Counted from the first letter of the stretch, positions 34,133 to 61,889 are shown. The stretch is DNA of 64,000 bases from Gemmatimonadales bacterium (GCA_035517615.1 DATIYM010000035.1:1493-65492); one strand, 5' to 3'. Notes: a model not told the origin generated them from the letters alone. A program made the numbers and translations.

Positions 34133-34582
34133 CTAGCACGGTGTATCCGGCTGCACCCGACAGCAGGCTACTGGCAAATCATCCGCCACATCCCCGGTCG
34201 TATTCCCCGAGGAGCACGTCTGCGCACTACTCGAAACGTATGCGCGGTTACCGAGATAGATGATCGCCGCGAGCGTAACGCCGGTGGCGCCTCCCACCAG
34301 CACCGCCGTGCGGGCCGAGTCACGTTCGCGGACCTGCAGCGCGACCGTCTGCGAGAGCGGCATTTCCCGGTATTTGCCGTCAACAAACCCGATCAGCGTG
34401 TCGCCGCGGACTTCCGGAGCGGCAACCTGGATGACCGTGTGATCGGATTGGGTCACCCAGATCCGGTCCAGCGAGCGCGCCGACCCGATGTCCGCGGGCG
34501 TGACCGTCCGCATGGAGTGACAGGCGCTCGTGAGTACCGCTCCCGCCAGCGCCACGACACCGAGGCGAAACGAATGCGTCAT
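34133..34582 (-). CDS. paralogue 1 of the small WVT/GDTL lipoprotein family
   Basis: Trimmed to MTHSFRLGVVALAGAVLTSAC (lipobox). The core reads RIWVTQSD...VRGDTLIGFVDGKYREMPLSQ, then TM ARTAVLVGGATGVTLAAIIYLG and a Cys-rich tail ...CSSG...ACCRVQPDTPC. Confidence 0.7.
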   Translation of the reverse strand: MTHSFRLGVVALAGAVLTSACHSMRTVTPADIGSARSLDRIWVTQSDHTVIQVAAPEVRGDTLIGFVDGKYREMPLSQTVALQVRERDSARTAVLVGGATGVTLAAIIYLGNRAYVSSSAQTCSSGNTTGDVADDLPVACCRVQPDTPC

Positions 34583-34813
34583 GCGTAGAATTTTAACACC
34601 GGATTCAATCCGGCGTCGCGCATCAGAACACGGCAAGGCACGAACATGTGTGGCGGCTCAAGGGCGGCACCCACAGCCGGTTCAACATCGACGGCTATTA
34701 CTTCTCCGTGGCGGCAGCCGATGTGGCGTTCGCCAACAACTGGCTGTGGAGCTCGGACGATATCGTGTTGTACGACGACCCCGACCACGACGTCGAGAAC
34801 ACGCGCACCAGTT

Positions 34814-35998
34814 ATGTTGCCGGCAATGGTGCGCATTGTCCGGTTGGGAAACCACGCCTGGATGGCCGCAGTCCCCTGCCTGCTCACCGGGTGCAGCGAC
34901 AGCTCGACCCTCGCGGCGAGCAGGATCCTGCACCCGGGACTCACCACCGTGGTCTCCGGGCTCAGCTCGGCCCTCTATGTCACGGCTCCCCCTGGCGACA
35001 CGAACCGGATCTTCGTCGTGCAGCAAAGCGGTGTCATCCGCGTGCTGCGCCGGGACACCCTGCTCGCCCCGCCGTTTCTTACCGTCTCGAGCGTAATCGC
35101 CTATGGGGGCGAGCAGGGCCTGCTCAGCCTCGCGTTCCACCCGCGGTATGCGACGAACGGCTTCCTCTATGTCGGCTATACCGCAAAGAACGGAGACGTC
35201 ACTGTGGCCCGCTATCACGTCTCCACCGACCCGAACGTCGCCGACCCAGCGTCCGGCACCATCCTGCTCACGGTGCCACACTCGACGTACGGCAATCACA
35301 ACGGCGGCCTCGTGCTGTTCGGACCCGATGGTTACCTCTACGTCGGGATTGGCGATGGCGGGAGTGAAGGAGATCCGTCCGGGAACGGCCAGGACAGCAC
35401 GAAGCTCCTGGCCAAGATTCTCCGCATCGACGTCGATGGCGGCACGCCGTACGCCATACCCCCCACCAATCCGTTCGTGGGCCGGCCTCCCGCCGCACCG
35501 GAAATCTGGGCGTACGGTGTGCGCAACCCGTGGCGGTTCTCGTTCGATCGGGCCACCGGCGATCTCTACATCGGGGACGTAGGACAGGATCTCTGGGAAG
35601 AGATCGATTTCGCGCCCAGCGGCGATCGCGGCGGGCACGACTACGGCTGGAACGTCATGGAAGGGATGCACTGCTACCAGCCGTCCAGCGGGTGCGTGAC
35701 CACGGGACTCAACCTCCCCGTGTACGAGTATGGCCACGGGCCCGGCTGCTCGATCGCCGGCGGCTACGTCTACCGCGGGACCGCGCTTCCGGCGTTCGCG
35801 GGTCGCTACTTTTTCGGCGACTACTGCGCCGGGTGGGTGCACAGCTTCGTGATGCAGAACGGGAGCGTGACCGACGTGGTCGATCACTCCGCTGAGTTCG
35901 GACTGATCCCGGGGCTCACATCATTCGGAGAGGACGCTCGAGGCGAATTGTACATCACGAGCTCGAACGGAGACGTGTACCGGATCGCGCCTCAATAG
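34814..35998 (+). CDS. PQQ-dependent sugar (glucose/sorbosone) dehydrogenase-type beta-propeller lipoprotein
   Basis: Trimmed to MLPAMVRIVRLGNHAWMAAVPCLLTGC (residue 57). Family motifs are EQGLLSLAFHP, HNGGLVLFGPDGYLYVGIGDGG, GQDSTKLLAKILRIDV, EIWAYGVRNPWRFSFD and GDLYIGDVGQDLWEEI. Confidence 0.88.
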   Translation: MLPAMVRIVRLGNHAWMAAVPCLLTGCSDSSTLAASRILHPGLTTVVSGLSSALYVTAPPGDTNRIFVVQQSGVIRVLRRDTLLAPPFLTVSSVIAYGGEQGLLSLAFHPRYATNGFLYVGYTAKNGDVTVARYHVSTDPNVADPASGTILLTVPHSTYGNHNGGLVLFGPDGYLYVGIGDGGSEGDPSGNGQDSTKLLAKILRIDVDGGTPYAIPPTNPFVGRPPAAPEIWAYGVRNPWRFSFDRATGDLYIGDVGQDLWEEIDFAPSGDRGGHDYGWNVMEGMHCYQPSSGCVTTGLNLPVYEYGHGPGCSIAGGYVYRGTALPAFAGRYFFGDYCAGWVHSFVMQNGSVTDVVDHSAEFGLIPGLTSFGEDARGELYITSSNGDVYRIAPQ

Positions 35999-36017
35999 CC
36001 GTGGTCTAGCGATAGCT

Positions 36018-36269
36018 TTGGTCTCGACAACGAAGGGCCAGTCTCGCAACCCCGAATTCCTGCCTGAAAGGACGGACAGTGTGGCCGACCTCAATCTGAC
36101 GCCGGACGAAGCCACCATCATCGCGAATGCGCTCCAGAGCTACGTATCGGATCTGCGGATGGAAATCGCCGACACCGATGCGCAGCCGGTGCGCGAGCGG
36201 CTGAAAAAAGAGGAAGCGGTGCTCAAGGCGGTGATCCAGCGCTTGGCCGGACCCTCCGTCCAGCGCTGA
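36018..36269 (+). CDS. small hypothetical protein
   Basis: An 83-aa helical-looking ORF (DEATIIANALQSYVSDLRMEIADTDAQPVRERLKKEEAVLKAVIQRL). Start uncertain. Confidence 0.4.
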   Translation: MVSTTKGQSRNPEFLPERTDSVADLNLTPDEATIIANALQSYVSDLRMEIADTDAQPVRERLKKEEAVLKAVIQRLAGPSVQR

Positions 36270-36330
36270 CGCGCGCGGTTTGAGGAGCGCCCCCCTGATC
36301 ACCCAAGGAGGGCGCCCCGCTCTACCAGGC

Positions 36331-37602: not shown

Positions 37603-38015
37603 GGTCCCTCCTCAGGGTGAGACATGAGGTTCGGCGGCTCGACTGGCGTGACACGCAAGACTGGCGTGCGGTAGCCTCGGGGCTTTGCGTCGCCGGCTTT
37701 CGCCGGGTTTGCCTTTGTCGCGCTCGCGCAGAGGAGTGCGGAGGGCGATCCTGCCGAACTAGGGATTACGGCAGAGCTGCGGTACAACGACGCAAAGATT
37801 CACTCGGGTGCTGATTTGTTCTGTGACGTCGCTCAAGTAAGCGTGGGCGGCGAATTGGGTCGGATGCTTGCCAATTGTTTGGGTCAGATGTCCGGAACCT
37901 GCGGCGTCTGACGCGCGACATTCAACGTCTGACGACTAGTAATTGTTCGGACGAGGTACTAGGGAAAAAATGGGGGCACGGTATGCCGCGCCCCCATTGC
38001 TTCGTAACGCGCCTT

Positions 38016-39428
38016 CTAGTGTTTGTGGCCGGGCACAACGGTGCGCGCAAAGACCACGACGCAGCCCTGGCCTTTGACGACACAGCGGTTGGTCGCGTCA
38101 GTCGCCGCGGCAAACAGCACTCGGGTAAAAATCTCGTTCGTCTCCGCGAACGCGGATGGACTCGCACCCGCAATGTTCGGGACGTTCTGCAGCCATTGAC
38201 CGGTGAACGCGTTCATGATACCCAGGGAGGAGACGGCCGTAACGGCATCGTTGCCGGTCACGAGGAAGGTGCCGTCGCCTCGGTTGATCCAGTCTTCATC
38301 CCCCGTGCCCACCTGGGTGATCACGTTCAAGACGTCCCCGGTTCGCGCATTCAGTCGCATCGGACGACCGCACAGCTGTGCCCACAGATTGTTTCCGATC
38401 ACCCGAAGATTGTTACTGGCGTTGCTCGCGGCCCCCGTGAGCGCGACACAATCGTACGTGCGCTGCGATTCGATCGTCATCGTCCTCGGATTGATGGTCT
38501 GGATGAACGGGCCTCCCGCAGCGCCGGTGATCGGCAGCAGGAAGCGGTTCAGCACGGGAACCCAGACGTGCCCCTCGGCCGAGCCGGGGCCCAACGACAG
38601 CTGGCCCAGAATCCGGTACGGGTGACGTGCCGAGATGAGCGTGAGATAGCTCGGGATTGCCGCGCCGGCGGCGGTGATCCCGGCGGCCGTGGTGCAATTC
38701 GCTCCGGCTGCGCTGCACTTCACATAGGACAGTGGGTTCGGATTGGAAACCGCGACAATGTGGTGCACCGGATCGTAATCGATTTCGTTCGAGCGCCCGC
38801 AAAAGTGCGTCGTCGCGGTCCCGCCATCACAGTCGGACTTGGCAACGCTGATCGACGTGAGGATCTGCAGGCGTTCCATGTCCACGACCTGCACCGTCGC
38901 ATTGCCATCGGACACGAACAACACCCTTGTGTCGAAGCCACCGTGCTCGTCGTCGTGCCCCCAGCCATGGTCGTCGTCATCATGACCGCGTCCACGAAGG
39001 ACAGGCGCCGACACAAAGCTGTTCGGCCCAGCACCGTTGGTCGCGGCCGTACCCCCGCCGGTCCCGACGTTGCCCGCCATCCCGCCAACGCGGCCGATGT
39101 ATGTGTGCGTCCGGACATCGACAACGTCCACGCCATTGTTGGACGCGTCGGACACGAAATAGCGGGCGTTCGACTGCTCGACCCAGGTTTTCTGGGAGCT
39201 GGTCAGCGGATTACCGGGAATCTCGATCGCGCACAGGAAGTCATAGGGGCCGCTGGCATCTCCACGGCCATTGAGCGCACAATCGGGGTTGCCGTGATTC
39301 ACGCTATGCCCGAACGCGGGCACGGCGATGGGAGCCGTTGCCTGTGGCGTGTTATCGCAAGCGGCTACGAGCGCGGCCGCCAGAATACAGATCGACGAAG
39401 CGGACACGATTCGCACTGCAGGCTTCAT
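38016..39428 (-). CDS. secreted lipoprotein, probable beta-propeller fold, unknown function
   Basis: Lipobox LVAAC. 470 aa, Gly/Thr/Asn-rich with repeated strand-like segments and a His/Asp-rich loop (RGHDDDDHGWGHDDEHGG). Confidence 0.6.
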   Translation of the reverse strand: MKPAVRIVSASSICILAAALVAACDNTPQATAPIAVPAFGHSVNHGNPDCALNGRGDASGPYDFLCAIEIPGNPLTSSQKTWVEQSNARYFVSDASNNGVDVVDVRTHTYIGRVGGMAGNVGTGGGTAATNGAGPNSFVSAPVLRGRGHDDDDHGWGHDDEHGGFDTRVLFVSDGNATVQVVDMERLQILTSISVAKSDCDGGTATTHFCGRSNEIDYDPVHHIVAVSNPNPLSYVKCSAAGANCTTAAGITAAGAAIPSYLTLISARHPYRILGQLSLGPGSAEGHVWVPVLNRFLLPITGAAGGPFIQTINPRTMTIESQRTYDCVALTGAASNASNNLRVIGNNLWAQLCGRPMRLNARTGDVLNVITQVGTGDEDWINRGDGTFLVTGNDAVTAVSSLGIMNAFTGQWLQNVPNIAGASPSAFAETNEIFTRVLFAAATDATNRCVVKGQGCVVVFARTVVPGHKH

Positions 39429-41057: not shown

Positions 41058-41130
41058 TGCGCCGACTCGGAATCGAACCGAGAACCTACTGATTAAGAGT
41101 CAGTTGCTCTACCAATTGAGCTATCGGCGC
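41058..41130 (-). tRNA. tRNA-Lys (anticodon CTT)
   Basis: The reverse complement reads GCGCCGATAGCTCAATTGGTAGAGCAACTGACTCTTAATCAGTAGGTTCTCGGTTCGATTCCGAGTCGGCGCA. Confidence 0.93.
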
Positions 41131-41213
41131 TGGACAAGAAAAGAAAAGACTTCAAGAAAAGACGTTTAGCAAAAAGCCTGGGAAAGATCACTGATCCACA
41201 ACACGGAGACAAG

Positions 41214-45742: not shown

Positions 45743-46147
45743 TTACTTCGCGCTGTTGCTCTCGATGACCTTCACGTAGCCGTAGGTAATCAACGCCCAG
45801 GCACCGACACCGGCGAAGATTGCAAGCGCGGTCTTGCCGTGCGCATACTGCTGGGCTTCGACCACTTTCACATCGCCAATCGGCATTTCCGTGAACTCAC
45901 CCATCGCGCCGCCCGGTCGCTCGGTGAACCCCATCAGCGTATCACCCGACAGGTGCGCACCGATGATCGTCAGCTTCTGCCCGTCGGTGCGGGTCACACG
46001 AATCAACTTGGGTGTGACTGATTCGATGTAGTTGGCAGGCTCCTTCACCGGCGACATCGAGGTGCAAGCACCGCTGGCCAACGCGATCATGAGCAGCGTG
46101 GCGCCCGCGGCGGCCGAACGAGAACGGGAATCGGTGCGTCTGGACAT
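45743..46147 (-). CDS. paralogue 2 of the small WVT/GDTL lipoprotein family
   Basis: Trimmed to MSRRTDSRSRSAAAGATLLMIALASGAC, with AAGGAG upstream. The core reads LIRVTRTDGQ...LSGDTLMGFTERPGG...FTEMPIGDV and the TM is GKTALAIFAGVGAWALITYGYV. Confidence 0.7.
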   Translation of the reverse strand: MSRRTDSRSRSAAAGATLLMIALASGACTSMSPVKEPANYIESVTPKLIRVTRTDGQKLTIIGAHLSGDTLMGFTERPGGAMGEFTEMPIGDVKVVEAQQYAHGKTALAIFAGVGAWALITYGYVKVIESNSAK

Positions 46148-46361
46148 GTCGTACAGTCTCCTTGAAGGCCGGGTTCTGGCGCGAGCCACCGGTCGTTGAA
46201 CAGGGCGTCAATCTTCGCAACGCTGGACCCTACACTTACGGCAGGGAACCCTTTGAAGGGCTCCAATATTCCACGCATTCCGGGATCATGCAAGGGTGGC
46301 CCGCCGGGCCGGTCGGGCGGCGAAGGCCACCACCGGCCTGCGGGTGCGGCTCGATGCCGCT

Positions 46362-46827
46362 CTACATCTGGCCCGAGTCGGCCGGGAAGGGACAGGCTGC
46401 GCCGGCGGTGTACAGCCCAGTGTTGCAGTAGTTAGCAGCGCCCTGCCCTTCAGCCTGCTTCACATACAGATAGATGATCCCCGCCGAGGCGGCGAGACCG
46501 CCCCCCACCGCCAGCAAGGTCTTCCCGTGCGCCCATTGCTGGGCCTCAACCGCTGTGACGTCCTGAAGCGGGATCTCCGTGTACTCATGCATCACACCGT
46601 TCGGTCGATCGACGAAGCCGTAGAGCGTGTCTCCTTGCATCTGCGCGCCAATGACGGAGAGCTTGCTGCCATCCTTCTGCGTTACGCGGACCATCTTGGG
46701 CCGTACCGTCGTGATGTAGCTGGTGGGGTCCTTCACTTTGCGCATCGAGGTGCAACCGGCCAGCAGCACGGCCGCCGCGACCGCCGCGCGCGCCGCGCGC
46801 GACCACGGTTCCAGGGACTTGGCTCAT
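46362..46827 (-). CDS. paralogue 3 of the lipoprotein family; frame break inside the signal-peptide region
   Basis: The body (track ORF 46362..46769) reads LLAGCTSMRK...MVRVTQKDGS...MQGDTLYGFVDRPNG...YTEIPLQDV...GKTLLAVGGGLAASAGIIYLYV. The only well-placed start is the ATG at 46827, which overlaps the GWxTD stop (ATGA) and has GGGAGACGGG upstream. That ATG is in another frame. Confidence 0.6.
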
Positions 46828-48221
46828 TTCCCGTCTCCCGTTTCCCGGCTCCCGGTAGTTCCGGACGCCCGGTGCAATGAGTTCAATGCCGTCTGATAGT
46901 CCTCGCGTGATTCCGGCGTGAGCTTGTATTGGCCGAGCCCGCTCGCGTCTTCAAAATAGAGCGTCACGTGGGGATGATCGTACTCCCATTTCCACCCTCC
47001 GCCCATCTTGCCCGGAACTTCGGACGTTCGGTCCGGCTCGCCCAGAGTAATGTAGACCTCGCCGCGGTCGGTCAGCCAGCCCGCATCCACGAACTCCTGG
47101 TAGCGGCGATTGGCGGTATCCACGCGCTGCAGGTACCCGTCCAGGGTCTCGTTCTGTCGCGTCGCGGGCACGGTATCCGTGCTGCTGTTGAACTGATGCC
47201 AGGCGCCGACGCGGTCGTCCTTAGTCGCATTGCGCAGGTCGGTCACGAGATCCTGGCGGTCGAAGAACTTGAGCAGGCTGATCATCTGATCCCACGACGC
47301 GACGGCCCAACGATCGGAGAAGCTGACCAGGAACGGAGTGCTCCCGACCGCGATATCCGAATCGTTCCCGATCGCCGACAACCAGAGAACGTCGCTGCCC
47401 AGCGGCAGCACGCCCGGCGCGATCGCGACCTTCGCGGTCTGCAGGATGCCGTTCGGGTCACGCGGCTGAAGGGTGACGGTGTCCTGCCAGAACGCGACCG
47501 AATCATGATCCATGACCCACGCGGCGAGCTTCGCGCCGACCGGCAAGCGATAGCCTTCGATGTAGAAGTGCAGCGAGTCGGGACCGGTGAGCACCGTCCC
47601 GCGCGGGTTGATGACGAGGTCCGCGAACTCGGCGAGACTCGCGCGACCCCGCCCCTCGTAGATCGGAATCGGCGTTCCCAGCGACGGTCCGTCGAAGCGG
47701 GGCACGGTGTCGCGAATCTCGTGACTGCCATGCGCCGGGCTCTGGAGATCGCGCACCACGACGTTCACGCCGTAAATCCCCGGCCGGATCGGAATGTTTT
47801 CCTGATAGATGATGCTCTCGTCCGTGCGCTGCGTTTCGGCGACGTTATGGACCCGCACTGCCTCGTCGCGCGACACGTCGCGCGCGTATCCCGAGTCGCC
47901 GCTGAAGGAGATGTCGACGTGATATCGCCCGACGAAATCCGAGCCCTCGGTGCGGAAACTCAGCGCGCGGTTCGAGAGCGACAGGCCGAACACGACGATG
48001 GTCGAATCGGGCGTCGGTCCGGCCAGGAAGCGAAGCGATCCCACGAACCGCAGCTGGGCGGTATCCACGAGATAGCCCATGGAGCGATAGATCTCGCGTG
48101 AGTCGTAGGGCGCGGCCCCGGGATGCGTGGGATGCACCTGTGACGCCGTCCACCACGGGCGCGGACCGCAGCCGGCGAGCGCCGCGGCGAGAAGCACAGT
48201 TCGGGCAATCCGATGACTCAC
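46824..48221 (-). CDS. GWxTD domain-containing lipoprotein
   Basis: The GTG at 48221 (residue 27 of the track ORF) gives VSHRIARTVLLAAALAGC (lipobox). The signature near the C-terminus is FVDAGWLTDRGEVYITLGEPD. Confidence 0.8.
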   Translation of the reverse strand: MSHRIARTVLLAAALAGCGPRPWWTASQVHPTHPGAAPYDSREIYRSMGYLVDTAQLRFVGSLRFLAGPTPDSTIVVFGLSLSNRALSFRTEGSDFVGRYHVDISFSGDSGYARDVSRDEAVRVHNVAETQRTDESIIYQENIPIRPGIYGVNVVVRDLQSPAHGSHEIRDTVPRFDGPSLGTPIPIYEGRGRASLAEFADLVINPRGTVLTGPDSLHFYIEGYRLPVGAKLAAWVMDHDSVAFWQDTVTLQPRDPNGILQTAKVAIAPGVLPLGSDVLWLSAIGNDSDIAVGSTPFLVSFSDRWAVASWDQMISLLKFFDRQDLVTDLRNATKDDRVGAWHQFNSSTDTVPATRQNETLDGYLQRVDTANRRYQEFVDAGWLTDRGEVYITLGEPDRTSEVPGKMGGGWKWEYDHPHVTLYFEDASGLGQYKLTPESREDYQTALNSLHRASGTTGSRETGDGK

Positions 48222-48374
48222 GGGCGAGTACACCCTCGATTCTGGTACGGAGACGATCGCCGCCGGTTCATTTTTAGCGGGCCGAATGGCGCCAGTCAAC
48301 GCAGGGCGCCTGGATCACATCCGGTAACACCGAAGACTATATTAGAGTATCGTGCCCCGATTTTGGTTCCAGTG

Positions 48375-48713
48375 ATGAACAGTAGTCGTTCCGCATTGCC
48401 GACGCTGCCGGTCGAATTGCTCCGTGATGCGGTCGCCCGCGCCGTGGTGCAGACGTCGCTCCGTAAGGCGGCCCGCGAGATCTCCATCAGCCCAAATGGG
48501 TTGCGGAATTTCATCAATGGGGCCGTGGCCCGCCCGGCCACCTGCCTGAAGCTCGAGCGCTGGATCGCTCGCCGCAATCTCAAGAGCCGCATGCCCACGG
48601 AAGGACGCTTCATCAAGCTGCTGAACGAGGTCGCCGTCGACCTCACGCCAAGGAACGCCGCCGCGCTGGATCGTGGATATGGCGCGGCAGGCGGATTCGA
48701 GGCGAAGAGTTAG
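48375..48713 (+). CDS. small hypothetical protein, possible HTH
   Basis: Trimmed to MNSSRSALPTL (residue 55). SLRKAAREISISPNGLRNFING looks HTH-like. Confidence 0.45.
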   Translation: MNSSRSALPTLPVELLRDAVARAVVQTSLRKAAREISISPNGLRNFINGAVARPATCLKLERWIARRNLKSRMPTEGRFIKLLNEVAVDLTPRNAAALDRGYGAAGGFEAKS

Positions 48714-48764
48714 ATCAGCCTGATGAGGCGTTGAAGCGGAAGCGCACAGCGGCGGAGCAACGAG

Positions 48765-49196
48765 CTAACAGGGCGTCGTATTCTCGATCTGGCAACAGGG
48801 AATGTATTGCGAGCCTGGCGCGACCCCCATGTCGAGAATCCCGTTGGTGCACACGCCCACATCGCCAACGTCGGGCCGGTGCTCCATGTACCACAGGCCG
48901 GCGAACGTCGCGCCTCCCGCGATGATCGCGACCACCGCGGTCTTGGCCGGGTCTGACTGGAGCGCCTGAATTATCACGACATCGTCCAGGGCAATCCGTT
49001 GCGGCTCCCCATCCACGATCCCATTCAACGTGTCGTGGTTCACTTCGGGGTCCTGCAACTCCACCACGGAATGATCGAGGCCGGTGACCCAGACCCGGTT
49101 GTGGGCGTGCACCGGGTTCAACTGCGTCGGCGACACGGGCCGCAACGAGTGACAGGCAAGCGTGAGGGGCGCGGCAAGCACGACGATCGGGCGCAC
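48765..49196 (-). CDS. paralogue 4 of the small WVT/GDTL lipoprotein family
   Basis: Lipobox PLTLAC. The core reads RVWVTGLDHS...VNHDTLNGIVDGEPQRIALDDV, then TM AKTAVVAIIAGGATFAGLWYM and tail ...VCTNG...IPCCQIENTTPC (compare paralogue 1). Confidence 0.7.
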   Translation of the reverse strand: MRPIVVLAAPLTLACHSLRPVSPTQLNPVHAHNRVWVTGLDHSVVELQDPEVNHDTLNGIVDGEPQRIALDDVVIIQALQSDPAKTAVVAIIAGGATFAGLWYMEHRPDVGDVGVCTNGILDMGVAPGSQYIPCCQIENTTPC

Positions 49197-49457
49197 GCCG
49201 AAAAGAACCGCCTTCCGAGCGATGAGTCAACGTGGAAAGCCGCCATTCCGGCGAGCTTTCAGGGTGGACGGTTCATGGGGCCTGATATACGTTGGGGGAG
49301 CGAGTTCTTGCATAACGGTGCGTACACAGCCCGAGGGAGGGTGGCCGCATAACAAGGCTCAAGGCCAGGCCAGCTTCTCAGGTCCGTTTGACCTGGAGTC
49401 GGAAGACACCGAACTAGGGATGGTCGGAGCCGCAGCCCTCGCTGCGGCTCCGTTTGC

Positions 49458-49868
49458 GTGTTGAGGACAGGACGCGGGAGCGGAGCATTGGACGAGACCG
49501 GCTCGGCACCGTCTCACTGGGCGCGCCTCACGGCGGTTGGGCCCCATCCACTGCGTCGAGGCGCGTGGTATCGCGTCACGGTGCTCACGAACGACACGGT
49601 CACGCTGGAAGTGAACGGCAGGCGCGTGGTGGTGTCCCGCGCATTGACGGAACTCGCCGATCATCCGCCGGGCCAGTGGACGGTGGTCCCCCGTCCTCCC
49701 AACGCCTCGCTGCTCTTGCCGGCCAGCTGGGGCAGCCACTACGCGGTATGCCCCAGCTGCGGGAACCGCGCTCCGTTGTTTGGCGCGCCCTCGAGCATGG
49801 GGTGCGCGCGCTGCGGCCAAAGTTTTCCGGTCGCCTGGAACGAGCAATACATGAACAAGAGCAAATAG
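49458..49868 (+). CDS. hypothetical protein with C-terminal zinc-ribbon (CPSC...CARC)
   Basis: 136-aa ORF (TTG start in the track). HYAVCPSCGNRAPLFGAPSSMGCARCGQSF has two CxxC pairs. Confidence 0.45.
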   Translation: MLRTGRGSGALDETGSAPSHWARLTAVGPHPLRRGAWYRVTVLTNDTVTLEVNGRRVVVSRALTELADHPPGQWTVVPRPPNASLLLPASWGSHYAVCPSCGNRAPLFGAPSSMGCARCGQSFPVAWNEQYMNKSK

Positions 49869-49914
49869 GATCGCACGGGTTGGGCGCGCCCTTCCGTTTC
49901 ACTATGCTGAACAT

Positions 49915-50352
49915 ATGTTTGATATATCAACTATGACTCAACCATCACCTCTCACACTGCTCCTCGAACTCTCCCGGGCTCAGGCCCGGCTGGTCCGCCG
50001 GCTCGACGGCCGGCTCGGCGCGCTGCATGGCCTGAGCTTCGGGGATTTCGCGATCCTGCGGCATCTCGCCCTGGCCCCCGAGCGCAAGCTGCGCCGGGTC
50101 GACCTGGCCGAGGCGCTGGGCCTGACCCCGGCCGCGGTGACGCGCGCCCTGATCCCGCTCGAGAAGATCGGCCTCGTCAAGCGCGCCGTCGACAAGCACG
50201 ACGCGCGCGTCGGGTTCGCTTCGCTCACCCGAGCGGGCGAGCAGCTGCTCTCCCACGCGACCGAGGCCGCGGACCAGGCGAGCGCCGAAGCCTTGAGCGC
50301 GGATGCCACTCAGCTTGGCGAGCTGTCGCGGCTCGTGGCGAAGTTGCTGTAG
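49915..50352 (+). CDS. MarR-family transcriptional regulator
   Basis: The winged HTH reads LSFGDFAILRHLALAPERKLRRVDLAEALGLTPAAVTRALIPLEKIGLVKRAVDKHDARVGFASLTRAG. Confidence 0.88.
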   Translation: MFDISTMTQPSPLTLLLELSRAQARLVRRLDGRLGALHGLSFGDFAILRHLALAPERKLRRVDLAEALGLTPAAVTRALIPLEKIGLVKRAVDKHDARVGFASLTRAGEQLLSHATEAADQASAEALSADATQLGELSRLVAKLL

Positions 50353-50362
50353 GACCGCGGTC

Positions 50363-53023
50363 GTGGCCGTAGCGATTTACTTCATCTTCCTTATTTCGGG
50401 CGTTTCCGGACTCGTCTATCAACTCATTTGGGTTCGCGAGTTCGGACAGCTGTTCGGCAATACCGTCCAATCAGCGGCTCTCGTATCCGGCACCTTTGTA
50501 TTTGGTTTGGGACTAGGCGCCTATGTCGCGGGCCGCCTGATTGACAAGATTCATGCCGCACATTCGTCCGCCGCATTGCTTTGGTATTCCTGCGCGGAAG
50601 TGGGAATAGCAGTGGCGGCGTTTCTCTTGTCCGTGCTCATTCCGCATCTCGAGAGCTTCTCTCCTCTGGTTTCACACTATCGAGTCGCAGCACACGGTTG
50701 GCTCGAGCTCACCGGATCGTCATATCTGTGGCGCTACGTGATCGCCACCGTTCTTGTCGGGCCGGTGACCATTCTCATGGGCGCCACGTTAACCCTCCTT
50801 ATTCGTTTCCTGCTTAGTGGGTCGGTCGGCCATGCCGGTTGGCGCATTGGTTTGCTCTACGGCATCAACACCTTGGGCGCCGCCCTGGGCTGCGTATTGG
50901 TCGATCTCTGGGCAGTACCTCACCTCGGCATCACGACAACCAATGCGATCGCGGTGATGCTCAATTTGACGTGTGGGGTCGCGGCATTTGGTCTGACGCG
51001 GGTGCACCGATCAGCAGTAGCAATCAGTCGAGCAGTCTCTCCCGCCACGCTACCAGACGACGCTCTCGCGATTCTGCCCCTGGGCCTTGCGATCGCGATT
51101 TCCGGCTTCGCGGCCATGGGCATGGAAATCGCGTGGTTCCGGTTTCTCTCCGGCGTCTACATGGCCACCCGATTCACCTTCTCCATCCTGCTCGCCGTGC
51201 TCCTGGTGGGAATGTTCCTCGGGTCGACGATTGCGGGGTCCATATCGAAGCGGTTTGGGAACATGGCCGTGGTGTACGTCTGTGGTCAATTGCTGTTTGC
51301 GGTCGCTGTCCTGGGTGGGGTGTTCGTATCGATCCACACGAGACGATTCTATTTTGCCGGTCAACTGATGCGGCTCGAGGCGCCGGCGATTCCTGTCTCG
51401 CTGTTCGATTACATCAATGTGACGGCGGCGGCACTGAAGACGCTGTTTCTTCCGGCTGTGTGTATGGGACTGGCCTATCCTTCCATCAATGCCGTCGTGC
51501 AGAAAACACTCGACAAGGTTGGGACTCGCGCGGGCGCGCTCTATCTGTGGAATTGTACCGGGGCCATCGCGGGCTCTCTCGTTACCGGATTCATCTTGCT
51601 GCCCCATCTGGGTATCCAGCGATGCGTGACCGTGCTCGTGATGTGCGCCGCCGTGGCGACGGTCCCGGCGCTCGTCAGCTCCTGGGGCACGAGTCGCTCG
51701 TGGCTGGTGCGCGGTTCGGTCCTGGCGTTTGGGGTGATGAGCGTGGTGTGGCTGACCAAGCCCCCTTCGTATCTGCTGGCGATGGCCTACGATCTGTACA
51801 GCATGCCGTACGAGAACATCCTCACGGTCAGCGAGGGCATCAATGAGATTGCCGCGGTCAGCGAGGAGCCTGAACCGACGACGGGAGAGGGCAAGGTTCG
51901 CCGGCTTATCACCAACGGCTTCAGCATGTCGTCGACAGAGTATGTGGCACTGCGCTATCAGCGTGCCTTCGCGCATCTTCCCTTGCTGCAAATGGAGCAT
52001 CCTTCCTCCGTCATGATTCTTTGCTTTGGGGTCGGCAACACCCTGTATGCAGCATCGTTGCACCCGAGCGTACGGCACATCGAAATCGTGGACCTGTCCA
52101 AGAATGTGTTGGGCTTGGCGCCGTACTTCAGCCAATGGAACCGGGATATTCTGACGGATCCGCGGGTGAGCGTCATCGTGAACGATGGCCGCCAGCACCT
52201 CCGAATGACACCGGAACGATCCTTTGATTTGATTTCGCTCGAGCCGCCGCCGCTCAATCACGCGGGCACCGCCGCGCTCTATACCGAGGAGTTCTATCGC
52301 TTGGCTTACCGTGCGCTCAAGGCCGGCGGGTACATGACCCAGTGGGTGCCGTTCAATCAGGTGAGAGAAGAAAATTCCCGGCGGCTGGTGAAGGCGTTCC
52401 TGGATGTGTTTCCCAATGCGGTCCTGTTGAATGGGGCCTATCGCGATTTCATTCTCATGGGCCAAAAAGAAGGACCGAATCAAATCGACTGGCTGAGCGC
52501 GGAACGGCGGCTGCGCAGCAGAAGCTTGGTCATGGAAAGCTTGCGGGAGGTGAATCTCGCCGAACCGGTCGACTGGCTGGGGACGTTTGTCGGAAGCGCA
52601 CCACGCCTGACGACCGCGTTGAGCAACGTGAAGCCGATGACGGATGACGAGCCGGTGATCGAATACTATTCCCAGGAGGGGTTTACGAAATTCCCGCGGG
52701 ATCTATTCGAGACTGGCGACCTGGCCGACTGGTGTCCGACGTGCTTTCACGGTGGTCAACTGGCGGCGGACCTGAGCGTGTTGGGCCAATATCTTGCCGT
52801 CATGCAGGATATCTACCACAGCAAGGCCTTTGGGAATATTTACCCAACCAGCGACGATCACAGACCGTTTTTCGCCATTCGCATGACGCGGACGCCGCCC
52901 CGTCCCGAGGTGGGCCGTTTCCTTCGCTTTCCGACCGCGCAGGAGTTCAAAGCGCTGTTGACCAGGTTTCCGTACCTGAGTCGAGCCTTTGGCCCCCTGT
53001 TCATACGCAAGTACGTCAACTGA
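50363..53023 (+). CDS. fused polytopic membrane / spermidine-synthase-like (aminopropyltransferase-fold) protein
   Basis: GTG at 50363, just after the marR stop. The N-terminus IYFIFLISGVSGLVYQLIWVREFGQLFGNTVQSAALV is typical of this family. It has more than 10 TM helices, then a methyltransferase-fold part (VMILCFGVGNT, VIVNDGRQHL, FDLISLEPPP). Confidence 0.85.
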   Translation: MAVAIYFIFLISGVSGLVYQLIWVREFGQLFGNTVQSAALVSGTFVFGLGLGAYVAGRLIDKIHAAHSSAALLWYSCAEVGIAVAAFLLSVLIPHLESFSPLVSHYRVAAHGWLELTGSSYLWRYVIATVLVGPVTILMGATLTLLIRFLLSGSVGHAGWRIGLLYGINTLGAALGCVLVDLWAVPHLGITTTNAIAVMLNLTCGVAAFGLTRVHRSAVAISRAVSPATLPDDALAILPLGLAIAISGFAAMGMEIAWFRFLSGVYMATRFTFSILLAVLLVGMFLGSTIAGSISKRFGNMAVVYVCGQLLFAVAVLGGVFVSIHTRRFYFAGQLMRLEAPAIPVSLFDYINVTAAALKTLFLPAVCMGLAYPSINAVVQKTLDKVGTRAGALYLWNCTGAIAGSLVTGFILLPHLGIQRCVTVLVMCAAVATVPALVSSWGTSRSWLVRGSVLAFGVMSVVWLTKPPSYLLAMAYDLYSMPYENILTVSEGINEIAAVSEEPEPTTGEGKVRRLITNGFSMSSTEYVALRYQRAFAHLPLLQMEHPSSVMILCFGVGNTLYAASLHPSVRHIEIVDLSKNVLGLAPYFSQWNRDILTDPRVSVIVNDGRQHLRMTPERSFDLISLEPPPLNHAGTAALYTEEFYRLAYRALKAGGYMTQWVPFNQVREENSRRLVKAFLDVFPNAVLLNGAYRDFILMGQKEGPNQIDWLSAERRLRSRSLVMESLREVNLAEPVDWLGTFVGSAPRLTTALSNVKPMTDDEPVIEYYSQEGFTKFPRDLFETGDLADWCPTCFHGGQLAADLSVLGQYLAVMQDIYHSKAFGNIYPTSDDHRPFFAIRMTRTPPRPEVGRFLRFPTAQEFKALLTRFPYLSRAFGPLFIRKYVN

Positions 53024-53120
53024 TCGTGGGAAGAACACCGGATCGAAAACCAAATGGTCGGACTCGACGAGTCCGACCATTTTGGACGAGCACGCTGCGA
53101 CTGCGGTGCGGTGCTGCGCG

Positions 53121-53588
53121 TTACGGGGTTTCGATCACGGACGTTCCATTGGGCTTTCCATTGGTCGTACCGCACGGTTGCGGCAGCCCGTTGTTGGCGG
53201 CACCGGGAGCGAAACTCGCGCAGTAGGGCGCGCTCCCCTGGGTTTGCGATACGAGGAGTGCCATACCGATCGCCACCGCGCCGCCGAACACCATGGATTT
53301 CGCGAGCGATACTTCCTGCGCCTTCATGAGCTGCACCTGGGACACGGGAATTTCGGTGTATCCGCCAGTTTTGCTGGCAAAGCCCACGAGTGTATCGCCG
53401 CTGTCACCCCTGATCTGGGGATTGTACATCTCAACGACTTTCTTGTCGGCAGTCGTGACCCAGATGTGGCTTGGCGACTTCATCGAGACGTACTCCGCCG
53501 GATACCCGACGGTGGTCGTGCTCTTACAACCGGCACCGCCGACTACCAGAGCCAGCGACCCTAGACCCGCGAGAAATGGCACGCGCAT
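53121..53588 (-). CDS. paralogue 5 of the small WVT/GDTL lipoprotein family
   Basis: Trimmed to MRVPFLAGLGSLALVVGGAGC. The core reads HIWVTTADKK...IRGDSGDTLVGFASKTGGYTEIPVSQV, then TM AKSMVFGGAVAIGMALLVS and a tail with 2 Cys. Confidence 0.7.
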   Translation of the reverse strand: MRVPFLAGLGSLALVVGGAGCKSTTTVGYPAEYVSMKSPSHIWVTTADKKVVEMYNPQIRGDSGDTLVGFASKTGGYTEIPVSQVQLMKAQEVSLAKSMVFGGAVAIGMALLVSQTQGSAPYCASFAPGAANNGLPQPCGTTNGKPNGTSVIETP

Positions 53589-56465: not shown

Positions 56466-56602
56466 ACGAATACAACCTAATCCCACCCACGCCCGGGGCT
56501 CAAACTGCCGTCATCCCGTTGTCATCTCCTCTCGGTATACCCCAAGGCGTTTCGAAGTGTGGCAATATCAAAACTGGCGAACCGAGACCGAAAGGACAGG
56601 AT

Positions 56603-57025
56603 ATGCGCAACTATCTCGTCGTAATGGCAGCGGGACTGTTTGCCGTAGGCGCATGTAAGACCGTCGAGCCGATCGGGTATCCGGCGGAATTCGTCGCGAC
56701 GCGCGGGCCCAGCCACGTGTGGGTGACGAACACCAATGGTAACGAAACGGAGTTGTGGAATCCGACGGTGCACGGCGACACGCTGGCGGGCTTCAACCGC
56801 GGCGCCTTCACGGAAATTCCGCTCGGCGACATCAAGCTCATGAGAGCGCCGATCGCCGCGCCGGCTCGTACGGCACTGCTCGCGGGCGGCCTGGCAATTG
56901 GAAGCGCGGCCACGGTGGCGCTACTCATGGGCAGCGGGACCGGGTCGACGTGCATCACGCCCGGAACGGACTTCGTCAGTCCCTGCGTCAATCCGAACAA
57001 CCCGGACCAACACATCATCAACTGA
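56603..57025 (+). CDS. paralogue 6 of the small WVT/GDTL lipoprotein family
   Basis: Trimmed to MRNYLVVMAAGLFAVGAC. The core reads HVWVTNTNGN...VHGDTLAGFNRGAFTEIPLGDI, then TM ARTALLAGGLAIGSAATVALLMG and a tail with 2 Cys. Confidence 0.7.
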   Translation: MRNYLVVMAAGLFAVGACKTVEPIGYPAEFVATRGPSHVWVTNTNGNETELWNPTVHGDTLAGFNRGAFTEIPLGDIKLMRAPIAAPARTALLAGGLAIGSAATVALLMGSGTGSTCITPGTDFVSPCVNPNNPDQHIIN

Positions 57026-57050
57026 CAGGGACGGGACTGAGGCGGTCGCG

Positions 57051-57683
57051 ATGATTGTCAGCGTAGTCTTGTTCGCGGCTCTGGCGAGCGCGCCGGGTCC
57101 GGGCGCGCCCGCCCGTGCTGATGAGCTGCGGGTGTTCCTGGATCTCACCGATGCGACTGGTGGGGTGTTCCAGACGGCACTCGAGAGTGAGCTGCGCTCG
57201 CTGGGGGACGTCCTGATCGTGAAGGACTTGGAGGGCGCGAATTACGTGCTGCGGGTGGCGGTGCAGTGCAGCGCGACGCCGTGCGAGAAGGCAGACCAGT
57301 ATCTCTTCGTGTTCGAGATTGCCCGGCCCTTGCGTGAGGGGATGGTAACGCTTCCGCTGCGGCTGGCGCTCGCCCAGCACGGGGTGCGGATGTCGGCCGG
57401 CGATGCGGCGGCGGTCGGGGACGAGCTGTACAATGATTTGAGCGAGTACGAACGCCCGGCGCCACTGCGGGTCGAACGCTGGTCCCGAAAGGACTATCGC
57501 AGCGAGATACGGGACTTCGTGACGCGGCTCGATCGGGAGTGCCTGGAGTTCGACCGCCTGACGCTCAGGGCACAGGCGGCGCTCGCAGCGCACGATTCGG
57601 TGAATGCCGCAGCGTTGTGGCGAGAAGAAACACGGGCGCGGCGCAACAGCGATCTCTGTGCGGAGCAGGTCGTGGGCCAATAA
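57051..57683 (+). CDS. hypothetical secreted protein
   Basis: Trimmed to MIVSVVLFAALASAPGPGAPARA (residue 52). No motif recognised. Confidence 0.5.
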   Translation: MIVSVVLFAALASAPGPGAPARADELRVFLDLTDATGGVFQTALESELRSLGDVLIVKDLEGANYVLRVAVQCSATPCEKADQYLFVFEIARPLREGMVTLPLRLALAQHGVRMSAGDAAAVGDELYNDLSEYERPAPLRVERWSRKDYRSEIRDFVTRLDRECLEFDRLTLRAQAALAAHDSVNAAALWREETRARRNSDLCAEQVVGQ

Positions 57684-57878
57684 CGGTGGGGATCGTGAGT
57701 CCCAAGGCGCGTCTTTGATCTTCACGCCGTCGCCCGCGCTGGAACTCTATTGGCATGCCGGCTGGCCCCGTGGGGCCGGGCATTGCAGGAATCGACCGGA
57801 TGTCGCGAGCGACAGCGAGCGATGACGGCCAAGATCCGGCCGGGCGTGCGCAGGGCCGCGACGGAGTCGCAGCCCAAG

Positions 57879-57951
57879 CAGGCCCGGCAGGAATCGAACC
57901 TGCAACCCCCGGTTTTGGAGACCGGTGCTCTACCAATTGAGCTACGGACCT
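57879..57951 (-). tRNA. tRNA-Trp (anticodon CCA)
   Basis: The reverse complement reads AGGTCCGTAGCTCAATTGGTAGAGCACCGGTCTCCAAAACCGGGGGTTGCAGGTTCGATTCCTGCCGGGCCTG. Confidence 0.93.
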
Positions 57952-58754
57952 AAGAATTGCTACCGCTGCAAGTTACAGAATACGGGACGAGCGCGAAAGG
58001 CGCACTGTCAACGCGAGGTCTCGGCGTCCGGATCATCACCGACACAGGACCCACGCCATCCAGCGCCGCACGGAGCGAGAGCTCCGCGTCATCCACGATC
58101 AACGGTCCATTCACGGCGATGGCGAGCGAGCGCTTGCCCTTGTCGAACTCCCACCGGTACACCTCGTCGGGACGGTGTCGAAAGTTGATGCACCGGTGAC
58201 TCAACAGCTCGCGAGGTGACGCGGGCTTGGGGTGCGATTCGAAGTACGCGGGCGAGCCCACGATCGCCGCTCGCAGGTCCCGCGACACGCGGACCGCCGC
58301 CATGTCCTTCTCGATCTACTCCATGAGGTGGATCCCGGCGTCGAAACCCTCGGCGACGAGGTCGACGCGGCGCTCCTGGATCGTGACGTCGAGCACCACC
58401 TTGGGGTAGTCGCGCGCCAACTGCCCCACCTTCGGCGCGATCACGGTCATCGCGGCGAGCCGCGATACCGCCACACGCACGCGGCCCGCCGGCCGTTCCC
58501 GCAGCCCGGAGATCAGGTCCAGGGCCCCGTGGATGTCGCCAAGTGCCGGGCGCAGTCGCGCCACGAGCTGTGCTCCGGCATCGGTCGGTGCGACGCTCCG
58601 CGTGGTGCGCGCGAGCAGCCGCACGCCGAACCGGTCCTCCAACCCGCGAATCGCGTGGCTCAGCGCCGAGGGAGACACACCCAGTCGTTTCGCCGCCCGC
58701 GCAAATCGATTTTTGCCGCTACTCAGCTGGCAACTGCGCCTGTACGCTTGGCAT
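57952..58754 (-). pseudogene. LysR-family regulator, decayed (in-frame TAG, damaged N-terminus, 3' truncation next to tRNA-Trp)
   Basis: The [38 protein letters not shown] and FDAGIHLME are followed by TAG (58316-58318). The same frame then reads IEKDMAAVRVSRDLRAAIVGSPAYF...RWEFDKGKRSLAIAVNGPLIVDD...AALDGVG. The last ~50 aa typical of LysR proteins are absent. The only upstream ATG (58754) is out of frame. Confidence 0.7.
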
Positions 58755-58770
58755 CGAGGAGGCAGTCCAC

Positions 58771-60197
<1,427 letters not shown>

Positions 60198-60320
60198 GCG
60201 GACGGGAGGCGCTGCGCGTATACCGTGTCGTGCTCGGCGCGGCGCTCAACGTTGGCTTCACCCCGATGAAGGCCAGGGAGAGACGCTGAACGGCCTCCGC
60301 GCAGTCGACGAGGTGACCGG

Positions 60321-60835
60321 ATGAAGGTACTGGCCGTCGGTGCGACAGGCAGCATCGGACGCCTCGTCGTTGATGAAGCGCTTCGCGAGGGCCATGCCGT
60401 GCGCGCGCTGGTGCGCAACCCAGCAAGGGCGCGCCAGCTTCCTCCGAACGTGGAGCGCGTCGTGGGCGACGTCACTCGACCCGATACCCTTTCCGGCGTG
60501 ACCGATGGCGTCGATGCGATCGTCTTCACGCTGGGCTCGGACGACGGCGGAAGGGTGGGCGCTGAAATGGTCGACTACGGTGGCGTGCGCAACGTTCTGC
60601 GTGCGCTGGTTCCGCGGAGCGCGCGCATCGTACTGATGACGGCGATCGGCGTCACAAACCGCACCGGACGAGCACCGGCTCGTCCTTCTGCAGGGCGATA
60701 GGCGGCAGGCGGGCGATGCTAGCGACGGCGGACCCGCCGGGCGCGCTGGACGGCGTGCACGACACGGCGAACATGCCGCTCGAGGACGAGCCACCGCGGG
60801 TGCGGAACGACTTGAGCGCGATGCTCGCGCACTGA
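60321..60835 (+). pseudogene. NAD(P)H-binding atypical SDR (NmrA-like), internally deleted and frameshifted
   Basis: The intact Rossmann N-terminus MKVLAVGATGSIGRLVVDEAL...DYGGVRNVL...LMTAIGVTNR stops prematurely at 60701. Other frames downstream carry family-like pieces (EHRLVLLQGD; ...NDLSAMLAH, with a stop at 60833-60835). About 55 codons, including the expected ...YTIVRPG... segment, are missing. Confidence 0.55.
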
Positions 60836-61032
60836 TCGTCAGCCAATCCTCTAGTGCGGAGGAACCCTGCACTGCCCCGACGCGCTCACTCGATAATGGT
60901 GTAACCCCCACGTAGACCTGTTTCACCCCGCGAATCACAACAGAGACCCACTAAGAAATCATCAAGAATATGAACGCGTCTGAACCGGGATTCGTAACCC
61001 ATCAGGAGCGAGAGAACCCAATCGAGGGCCCC

Positions 61033-61401
61033 ATGAAACCGGTATTGCCATTGCTCGTTGCCGTTGCGCTCGCTGTGGCCTTGCTCGGCTGTACGCAGCA
61101 GGTCCCCATCCTGGCCCCGGCACAGTTCGTCAAGGACAGCACACCGCAAGCGATCTGGATCAGCTGGAACGATCAGCGCAAGGTCCGCATGGATTCCCCG
61201 TCGCTCCACGACGATACGCTCGTCGGCCTCGTGAATGGCGAGGAAACACGGGTCGCGTTGGCCGATATCACCGCCGCAACCGTCGAGCAGAAGAACACCG
61301 ACAAATTTGTGAAGTATTCAGTCGTCATCGGCGCCACCGCTGTCGCCGCGGTCCTGCTCTACAAGGTCACCCACCAGGCGAGCTTCCCCGCAGAACATTG
61401 A
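61033..61401 (+). CDS. paralogue 7 (most divergent) of the small WVT/GDTL lipoprotein family
   Basis: Trimmed to MKPVLPLLVAVALAVALLGC (residue 22). The core reads AIWISWNDQR...LHDDTLVGLVNGEETRVALADI and the TM is KYSVVIGATAVAAVLLYKV. There is no Cys tail. Confidence 0.65.
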   Translation: MKPVLPLLVAVALAVALLGCTQQVPILAPAQFVKDSTPQAIWISWNDQRKVRMDSPSLHDDTLVGLVNGEETRVALADITAATVEQKNTDKFVKYSVVIGATAVAAVLLYKVTHQASFPAEH

Positions 61402-61454
61402 TCGCCACCTGTCCCGCTGCGGATCGCAACGGGACAGGATAGGTTTACTGCACG

Positions 61455-61889
61455 ATGCCGCTCGCTCCCCGCACGGTTCTGTCGCTCGCTTGTCTGCCCC
61501 TGCTGGTCGGTGCGGCAGCCGCCTGCCACAAGATGCGCCCCGTCGAGGCCGCGCAACTCTCGAGCAAGACGCTCGAACGCGTGTGGGTCACGAAATCGGA
61601 CGATGTGTCGATTGTGCTGGTCAATCCCCAATTGCGCGGCGACACCTTGGCCGGCTTTGTCGACGGCGCGTACCAGGAGATGCCGCTTTCGCAGGCGCGC
61701 TCGATGCGCGCGCGGGAGCCGGACTATGGACGCACGGCCCTGCTCGCCGGGGCCGCCACCGCTGCCGCGCTTGCCAGCTTCGTCTACTTCGAGAATCGTT
61801 CATATGTCGGCGGTGGCGAAGCCTGCTCGGAGGATATCCAGCAACAGCAGCAGATCGACCTGCACTGCGGGGGGCCGTGTCCGTGTTGA
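61455..61889 (+). CDS. paralogue 8 of the small WVT/GDTL lipoprotein family
   Basis: Lipobox GAAAAC. The core reads RVWVTKSDDV...LRGDTLAGFVDGAYQEMPLSQA (very close to paralogue 1). The TM is GRTALLAGAATAAALASFVYF and the tail is ...EACSED...LHCGGPCPC. Confidence 0.7.
   Translation: MPLAPRTVLSLACLPLLVGAAAACHKMRPVEAAQLSSKTLERVWVTKSDDVSIVLVNPQLRGDTLAGFVDGAYQEMPLSQARSMRAREPDYGRTALLAGAATAAALASFVYFENRSYVGGGEACSEDIQQQQQIDLHCGGPCPC

Follow-up and report, generated by a model that had tools for sequence, protein, structure and literature searches.

A family of small predicted lipoproteins without a database model, present in eight copies in a Gemmatimonadales contig

The stretch analyzed here comprises 64,000 nucleotides of a Gemmatimonadales bacterium (GCA_035517615.1, DATIYM010000035.1:1493-65492; hereafter the window) and forms the end of a 110-kb contig, which stops approximately 3 kb beyond the last gene described below. 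It harbors eight dispersed genes, p1 to p8, which a first-pass annotation had described from the sequence alone as copies of an unrecognised small lipoprotein family. The eight genes are one genuine family and that account is largely right. On balance, they probably belong to a large family of small cell-envelope lipoproteins for which no database model exists, with a disulfide-bonded tail outside the cytoplasm and a membrane-tethered adaptor or structural role. Beyond that account, the analysis adds a fold assignment, an estimate of how large and how old the family is, a frameshift in p3, a conserved gene module with a GWxTD-domain protein, and evidence on topology from cysteine parity and charge. 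The features concerned are as follows (aa, amino acids; HMM, hidden Markov model; pLDDT, predicted local distance difference test).

34133-34582, minus strand: p1, 149 aa, four-Cys tail ending CCRVQPDTPC; found in the open reading frame listing, HMM E 7e-58
34520-34582, minus strand: predicted signal peptide of p1 with lipobox Cys21
34307-34522, minus strand: predicted barrel of p1, from the putatively lipidated Cys to [KR]-T; AlphaFold2 pLDDT 92-98
34250-34306, minus strand: hydrophobic helix of p1
34136-34249, minus strand: tail of p1
45743-46147, minus strand: p2, 134 aa, short Cys-free tail; last gene of the p4-GWxTD-p3-p2 module
46362-46827, minus strand: p3, two-Cys tail, frameshifted; frame of the body 46362-46823
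46794-46801, minus strand: (CG)4 run in the p3 signal peptide, one CG unit short of the (CG)5 of loci L011 and L012
46824-48299, minus strand: GWxTD-domain protein, Pfam PF20094 (E 2e-10), with a lipobox of its own (LLAAALAGC)
48765-49196, minus strand: p4, 143 aa, four-Cys tail ending CCQIENTTPC
53121-53588, minus strand: p5, 155 aa, two-Cys tail, three-residue insert (GDS) ahead of GDTL
56603-57025, plus strand: p6, 140 aa, two-Cys tail; divergent from an OmpR/HAMP-kinase pair
61033-61401, plus strand: p7, 122 aa, no Cys tail; most divergent copy (IWIS, HDDTLVGL)
61455-61889, plus strand: p8, 144 aa, four-Cys tail ending CGGPCPC; in tandem with p7

Eight paralogues and their wider family

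All eight open reading frames (ORFs) were recovered in the ORF listing with the coordinates and strands first assigned to them. In BLASTP comparisons among p1 to p8 every one of the 28 pairs was significant (29-127 bits, 24-57% identity), and an HMM built from the eight sequences, run against the 741 six-frame ORFs of the window, recovered p1 to p8 at E 1e-43 to 1e-58 and no ninth ORF at E<1. A broader HMM of 104 sequences found the same eight window ORFs and no others. All copies lie between 34 and 62 kb, with no additional ones in positions 1-34000. The genes are thus true paralogues of one family, as had been proposed.

The architecture that the first-pass annotation had outlined was reproduced by a MAFFT alignment of p1 to p8, and its shared motifs are upheld by this alignment and by the HMM. 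An invariant Cys closes a hydrophobic N-terminal segment and is followed by the WVT strand, (I/V)(W/R)(V/I)(T/S), by GDTLxG(F/I/L), in which D-T-L-x-G is invariant, and by an E/R-x-P/A-L strand. A basic residue plus Thr or Ser precedes an Ala/Gly-rich hydrophobic stretch; [KR]-T stands ahead of this helix in six copies, p5 has K-S and p7 deviates. The tails of p1 to p8 contain 4, 0, 2, 4, 2, 2, 0 and 4 cysteines, which agrees with the earlier count of six copies with two to four tail cysteines, and the CC...TPC terminus said to be common to p1 and p4 is present in both (CCRVQPDTPC and CCQIENTTPC).

Beyond the window, a word-indexed homology search returned 34 relatives, none with a Pfam domain, and the sole organism name among them was a Gemmatimonadales metagenome-assembled genome (MAG). 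An exhaustive profile search of 1.84 billion representatives yielded 5,833 clusters at E≤1e-3 and 2,032 clusters at E≤1e-10, counted at 50% identity. Among GTDB genomes two loci were found, both in Gemmatimonadota MAGs; such MAGs are so far the only named sources of family members, and the source environment is wetland metagenomes. One locus (L001) carries four copies within 15.9 kb and another (L002) four within 10.5 kb, and the MAG of L002 has a further tandem pair on another contig. Among more distant relatives a single copy is frequent. Searches of Pfam-A (2025), NCBIfam (2026), PHROGs and PADLOC with the eight proteins and 32-104 relatives gave no meaningful match, and none of the 104 diverse members matched any Pfam family. 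No relative was found among PDB sequences, where profile alignments covered only the signal peptide of the BamE lipoprotein. Profile searches of the kind that had been suggested thus revealed a large family and matched no characterised one in Pfam, NCBIfam, PHROGs or PADLOC, and the statement that the proteins cannot be assigned to a named domain stands. A JGI name on the relative P0002, CpaD/CtpE pilus lipoprotein, was rejected, as no CpaD match was obtained in Pfam or NCBIfam at E≤1. Thousands of clusters with several copies per genome and no Pfam or NCBIfam model amount to a sizeable annotation blind spot in Gemmatimonadota, a phylum that is abundant in soils and wetlands and whose cell envelope is almost unstudied. 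The alignment and the HMM could serve as the starting point of a new domain family and so help annotation.

GC content at third codon positions is 0.73-0.83 in all eight genes. Ratios of nonsynonymous to synonymous substitution rates (dN/dS) were 0.08-0.33 for orthologous pairs formed with the two Gemmatimonadota MAG loci (0.08 for p2 against L001; 0.10 and 0.14 for p4 against L001 and L002; 0.25 for p5, which is called as a 155-aa gene in four assemblies), showing that the genes are under purifying selection. Each paralogue is closer to an outside orthologue (44-96% identity) than to the other copies of the window (28-57%). The orthologue of p1, P0001, is 94% identical, and a protein identical to p7 (P0010) was found on 19 contigs. 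The duplications therefore predate the lineage split and do not reflect a recent burst; of the lineage-specific expansion that had been proposed, the multiple copies hold, but they are old paralogues with orthologues of their own in other Gemmatimonadota. Orthologues of p2 type (approximately 88-93% identity) were covered by metatranscriptome contigs of three independent peat and soil studies, which suggests that p2-type genes are transcribed in nature; DNA carry-over would also be possible.

The eight genes had been listed as 122-155 codons long, and one of them, p3, calls for a correction. The span of p3 (46362-46827) comprises 466 nucleotides and is not divisible by three: its ATG at 46827 shares nucleotides with the GWxTD stop codon (ATGA), yet opens a reading frame other than that of the p3 body. 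In L011, L012 and L001 this start codon and the body share one frame, and a normal signal peptide, MSRVPGTVVARATRAAVAAAVLLAGC, is encoded. Alignment with L011 and L012 placed the loss of two nucleotides within the p3 signal peptide, at the (CG)4 run of 46794-46801. The first in-frame start, GTG at 46769, leaves only MLLAGC up to the lipobox Cys and no usable signal peptide. Contigs of two independent wetland runs (X1 and X4, one of them from a slightly different strain) cross the site without an indel, and the frameshift is therefore a real allele and not an assembly error. Given 96% identity between the p3 body and the intact P0002, and a dN/dS of 0.09 against L001, the lesion is recent; it could represent gene decay or slip-strand switching. 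Relatives from other samples that are 98% identical carry an intact p3, pointing to a natural polymorphism at the dinucleotide repeat.

Predicted fold, membrane anchors and cysteine tail

An AlphaFold2 model of p1, based on an alignment of 32 sequences, reached a pLDDT of 92-98 for residues 22-87 and of 56-70 in the tail. A core-only model of p6, with the eight window sequences as alignment, gave a pLDDT of 88.6 and a predicted template modelling (TM) score of 0.71; here, a strand is followed by a helix and five strands, with a short helical turn ahead of the last strand. The models show a helix at residues 10-17 (H10-17), five bent strands and a 3-10 turn (HHH) between β4 and β5. The core is predicted to be an Sm/SH3-like small barrel with one extra N-terminal strand, and the two models and Foldseek agree in this with an early guess of an SH3- or Sm-like barrel. 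Among PDB structures, the C-terminal domain of RimP (E 3.9e-3, TMq 0.70) and dozens of Hfq chains (TM-score 0.55-0.72) were the best matches; a designed SH3 barrel and the DUF903 lipoproteins 2ra2_B, 2rd1_A and 5cai_A (TMt 0.63-0.72, rmsd 2.2-3.0 Å, 51-54 columns) were also obtained, the DUF903 identity of the last three being confirmed. No match reached E≤1e-3, so the hits assign the core to a fold class but do not demonstrate homology. The conserved residues P56, G60-D61-T62, G65 and E73-x-P75 map to bends and turns of the model strands and are therefore likely fold determinants. Two natural variants, P0038 and P0128, carry two tandem barrels after one lipobox and end in a single helix, which shows the barrel to be a module that sits, outside the cytoplasm, on a single side of the membrane. 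A further relative, P0035, looks like two adjacent genes fused through a frameshift.

The N-terminal signal was assessed with a lipobox rule of PROSITE PS51257 type (positive n-region, hydrophobic core, [LIVMFWSTAG]2-LIVMFYSTAGCQ-[AGS]-C). Seven of the eight window copies conform to it as encoded, p3 only by way of its unshifted orthologues, and so do 142 of 169 relatives; the Cys is invariant in the 104 diverse members. A Tat motif was absent from the family except for a weak RR in p2. The residue that follows the lipobox Cys is Thr or His in 75% of cases and Asp in none of 157. In E. coli, Asp after the lipidated Cys marks retention in the inner membrane, a rule that is not known to hold in the phylum Gemmatimonadota.

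The C-terminal helix comprises 19-20 residues with 25% Ala and 14.5% Gly and has a Kyte-Doolittle mean of 1.97 over 19 residues. On the translocon scale (approximate values) it scores as marginal: the median is +0.95 kcal/mol, and p1 to p8 range from +0.5 to +3.0. Its small residues recur with 3.6/7 periodicity and form a small-residue face. Lys and Arg together average 0.89 over the 12 residues that follow the helix, compared with 2.83 ahead of it, and the tail contains 12.5% Gly and 11.3% Pro and is rich in Gly, Pro, Ser and Thr.

Among the 169 relatives, tails with no (46), two (69), four (48) or six cysteines (2) make up 165 cases, and only four tails have an odd number. When Cys-bearing tails are considered, 119 of 123 are even (p=1.5e-37, binomial against a Poisson null). 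No Cys occurs between the lipobox Cys and the helix in any of the 169 proteins. Of the four exceptions, P0038 is a parsing artefact, since a second Cys lies at the end of its helix, and two have Arg-rich, frameshift-like tails. At least 24 distinct spacing patterns were seen, of which C-x8-10-C and C-x16-CC-x7-C dominate, and CxxC occurs in two tails only. One Cys blocked by lipidation plus an even number of others is what paired disulfides would produce. Together, the Cys parity, the Lys/Arg-poor tail, the marginal helix and the missing Asp argue that the tail is not cytoplasmic; in that case, the helix would not be an ordinary inner-membrane stop-transfer segment, or the protein would reside in the outer membrane. 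Paired disulfides outside the cytoplasm would fit best, in conflict with a simple inner-membrane helix. The C-terminal helix that the first-pass annotation had called a transmembrane helix is thus present, but the plain label is at odds with the even tail cysteines and the scarcity of Lys and Arg after it.

A different arrangement, for which we see a minor but real chance, is a double anchor in the inner membrane, with the lipid in the outer leaflet, a periplasmic barrel, a stop-transfer transmembrane helix and a cytoplasmic Cys tail that binds metal (Cys2 or Cys4 sites, possibly between subunits) or signals inward. The length and the Kyte-Doolittle hydrophobicity of the helix speak for it, as do a basic residue often found within three residues past the helix and the position of p6 next to a two-component system. 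Moreover, a lipobox together with a C-terminal transmembrane tail is documented for a DUF4349 protein (PMC10924467), so that the combination of both anchors, which had been singled out as topologically unusual, is rare but not unique. However, a cytoplasmic tail is hard to reconcile with the strict even parity and the near absence of CxxC or CxC knuckles; a Lys/Arg-poor tail rich in Gly, Pro, Ser and Thr is contrary to the positive-inside rule, the helix is marginal on the translocon scale, and many members are Cys-free with a tail of just 9-12 residues.

Several points weigh against an extracytoplasmic, disulfide-bonded tail and an adaptor role. A Kyte-Doolittle mean of 1.97 is clearly hydrophobic, and since Ala/Gly-rich inner-membrane helices are frequent in high-GC bacteria, the helix may insert as an ordinary stop-transfer segment with a cytoplasmic tail. 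Even Cys numbers could also result from pairwise metal chelation. As 46 of the 169 members, p2 and p7 included, have no tail Cys, the core function can do without the tail. The Lol sorting rules are known for proteobacteria and not for Gemmatimonadota. No partner recurred family-wide in a pooled Pfam scan of 50 flanking genes from approximately 25 loci of the other subfamilies, so that an adaptor or structural role is weakly grounded. Lastly, we infer lipidation, disulfides, compartment, oligomerisation and role from sequences and models.

On the favoured reading, with the tail outside the cytoplasm, the following architecture is proposed. The mature protein would start at the lipid-modified Cys and continue into a barrel of approximately 70 residues, composed of the extra N-terminal strand, helix α1, five bent strands and the 3-10 turn before β5. 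It would be followed without a linker by the [KR]-T cap, by the Ala/Val/Leu/Gly helix of 19-20 residues with its small-residue face, and by the variable, Lys/Arg-poor tail. In the model, the first strand begins at the Cys and the helix begins one residue after β5; because lipid anchor and helix leave the barrel at adjacent points, the barrel would be clamped flat on one membrane face. The helix would embed in the membrane and, given its periodic small-residue face, probably drive self-association. The tail cysteines would form one or two disulfides, and the tail would accordingly lie in the periplasm or at the cell surface, where conditions are oxidising, rather than in the cytoplasm. WVT, the conserved Pro, GDTLxG and ExPL would probably serve as fold scaffolding, whereas the variable surfaces and tails would give each paralogue its partner specificity, the proteins acting as adaptors or structural modules tethered to the membrane. 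As a hypothesis, they most likely serve the envelope in a structural or adaptor capacity. A more far-reaching version, to be regarded as speculative and improbable, is a ring in the outer membrane, with lipid and barrels on the periplasmic face, helices that cross the outer membrane like those of Wza, and disulfide-stapled, paralogue-specific tails on the cell surface, as variable peptides or small helical pores. If the tail is outside the cytoplasm and the helix spans the outer membrane, the family would represent a rare class of helical outer-membrane proteins.

Genomic neighbourhood

Three of the eight genes lie in a conserved module, in which a p4-type gene, a gap, the GWxTD lipoprotein gene, a p3-type gene and a p2-type gene are followed by a GGDEF gene on the opposite strand. 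The module occupies 45743-49196 (minus strand) in the window, is whole in L001 (2273-5895) and L002 (1904-6000), the latter with a third tandem copy of p2/p3 type, and is partial in L011 and L012, which are shorter contigs. Where p3 is intact, its start codon overlaps the GWxTD stop codon in an ATGA. The link is confined to the p2, p3 and p4 subfamilies, and a literature search on GWxTD found no papers. As no partner recurs across the other subfamilies, the family therefore appears to act alone, the GWxTD link aside.

Genes close to window copies encode a 5'-3' exonuclease, a glucose/sorbosone dehydrogenase, a di-haem oxidoreductase, a DUF748 protein, a GGDEF protein, a MarR regulator, a spermidine-synthase-like membrane protein, the OmpR/HAMP-kinase pair, a cupin, an aldo-keto reductase, Dps and cytochromes c, and five tRNA genes are present as well. 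The GWxTD protein (PF20094), the two-component system and the tRNA genes that had been noted beside the copies are therefore all there. The tandem p7/p8-like pair stands again beside Dps and cytochrome c in L023, and Dps/cytochrome c/YceI flank members at two mutually syntenic loci. A TonB-dependent receptor adjoins a member at three loci that are otherwise unrelated (L013, 7861-9966; L015, 10962-13088; L028, 5519-7747). TonB-dependent receptors are probably common in these genomes, and the adjacency may be chance.

This context bears on two further explanations. Immunity or defence arrays, e.g. orphan immunity lipoproteins against toxins that act in the periplasm, would account for several diverged copies in a short region, for tandem pairs (p2-p3 and p7-p8, and others in L002 and L015) and for variable tails. 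They are very improbable, as PADLOC gave no match, no toxin, secretion-system or mobile-element genes lie nearby and the neighbours are housekeeping or envelope genes; further, the orthologues are conserved across genomes under purifying selection, unlike fast-turnover immunity arrays. Unimolecular spanins carry an N-terminal lipid anchor and a C-terminal transmembrane helix, the two-anchor architecture of phage T1 gp11. Prophage-derived proteins of this kind, bridging the periplasm for lysis between an outer-membrane lipid and an inner-membrane helix, would share the lipobox, the C-terminal helix and a similar size with the family, and one member matches an Rz-like spanin PHROG at E 0.09. This explanation has next to no probability left and is effectively refuted by context: no PHROG or viral-structure (BFVD) match was significant, no holin, endolysin or other phage genes lie nearby, eight chromosomal copies have conserved orthologues, and the compact, linker-free barrel cannot span the periplasm. 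The spanin, prophage and immunity readings were thus rejected on genomic context and library searches.

Additional features of the region were observed. A 211-aa secreted ORF (57048-57683, plus strand), a gene call in four assemblies, follows p6 after 23 nucleotides and probably shares a transcript with it; no Pfam model matched the ORF. In L001, p5-type and p4-type genes are adjacent and divergent (1717-2761), while in the window approximately 3.9 kb (49200-53100) with the MarR gene and a 906-aa protein separate p4 from p5, and p5 is inverted relative to L001, which is a rearrangement between close relatives. The 906-aa protein (50303-53023, plus strand) joins a long polytopic membrane region, for which a weak MFS-like match was obtained, to a spermidine-synthase-like domain. 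A LysR-type regulator (57950-58678, minus strand) is split into two ORFs, one with the helix-turn-helix and the start of the substrate domain and one with the remainder, and a 126-aa NmrA/NAD-binding fragment (60321-60701, plus strand) seems truncated; both recur unchanged in four independent assemblies, pointing to local gene decay. A 470-aa exported protein without Pfam match (38016-39428, minus strand) contains a His/Asp-rich stretch, GHDDDDHGWGHDDEHGG, that may be a metal-binding site. Finally, the GC content is 0.575-0.62 in positions 1-12000 vs 0.62-0.70 elsewhere in the window, with a tRNA-Thr gene (11891-11962) at the boundary.

Comparison with known systems

The DUF903 proteins (YgdI/YgdR, PF06004; 2jn0, 2ra2, 2rd1, 5cai) are nearest in architecture and fold, being likewise small lipoproteins with a barrel directly after the lipidated Cys, and their function is likewise not known; a literature search for functional papers on YgdI/YgdR turned up none. 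With approximately 55 residues they are without the N-terminal helix, the C-terminal hydrophobic helix and the Cys tail of the p1-p8 family. The family could be a very divergent DUF903 branch, with a strand and a helix added at the N-terminus and a membrane helix and a Cys tail at the C-terminus, a claim on ancestry that is compatible with an extracytoplasmic tail and that we hold to be rather unlikely. In its favour are the shared lipoprotein layout, the Foldseek matches to 2ra2_B, 2rd1_A and 5cai_A, and the pairing of VWVT with YVMHT, GDT with DDT and EIPLSDV with QINRTDV in hhalign profile alignments. Membership nevertheless fails by sequence. PF06004 gave no match at E≤1 with the eight proteins nor at E≤0.01 with the 104 members. 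YgdI and YgdR sequences were fetched and 120 relatives gathered, all of which carry PF06004. A domain-only hhalign comparison of 152 family cores with 92 mature DUF903 domains gave a probability of 1.2% (score 14.8), compared with 14.8% when signal peptides were kept. In addition, Hfq and RimP score equally high or higher in the structure comparison, so that the likeness may be at fold level only. The DUF903 sequences collected, and with them the profile used, are almost wholly enterobacterial, whereas the p1-p8 family is found in Gemmatimonadota.

Hfq and the C-terminal domain of RimP, compared as single chains, have the topology of the predicted core in common, i.e. α1, five strongly bent strands and a 3-10 turn before β5. 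Both are cytoplasmic and bind RNA or the ribosome, whereas the p1-p8 family is predicted to be exported and lipid-anchored, and identities of 10-20% go along with no common motifs.

The doubly anchored DUF4349 protein and the spanins show the same combination of an N-terminal lipoprotein signal and a C-terminal helix in a small polypeptide. No homology to them was detected in Pfam, PHROGs or BFVD, and the family differs from them by its compact, linker-free barrel and its disulfide-type tail.

The glycine-zipper lipoproteins (SlyB/Pcp, OsmB and Rick_17kDa type) also unite a lipobox with an Ala/Gly-rich helix of small-xxx-small spacing. Membership in this group (PF13488, PF13441, PF05433) was rejected, as no Pfam match was obtained and one helix is present, not two; [GAS]xxx[GAS]xxx[GAS] occurs in only 87 of 176 helices. 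Glycine-zipper proteins form a helix hairpin, whereas the p1-p8 family has a single, more hydrophobic helix after a globular domain. Their example shows that a lipoprotein with a hydrophobic helix can still be delivered to the outer membrane.

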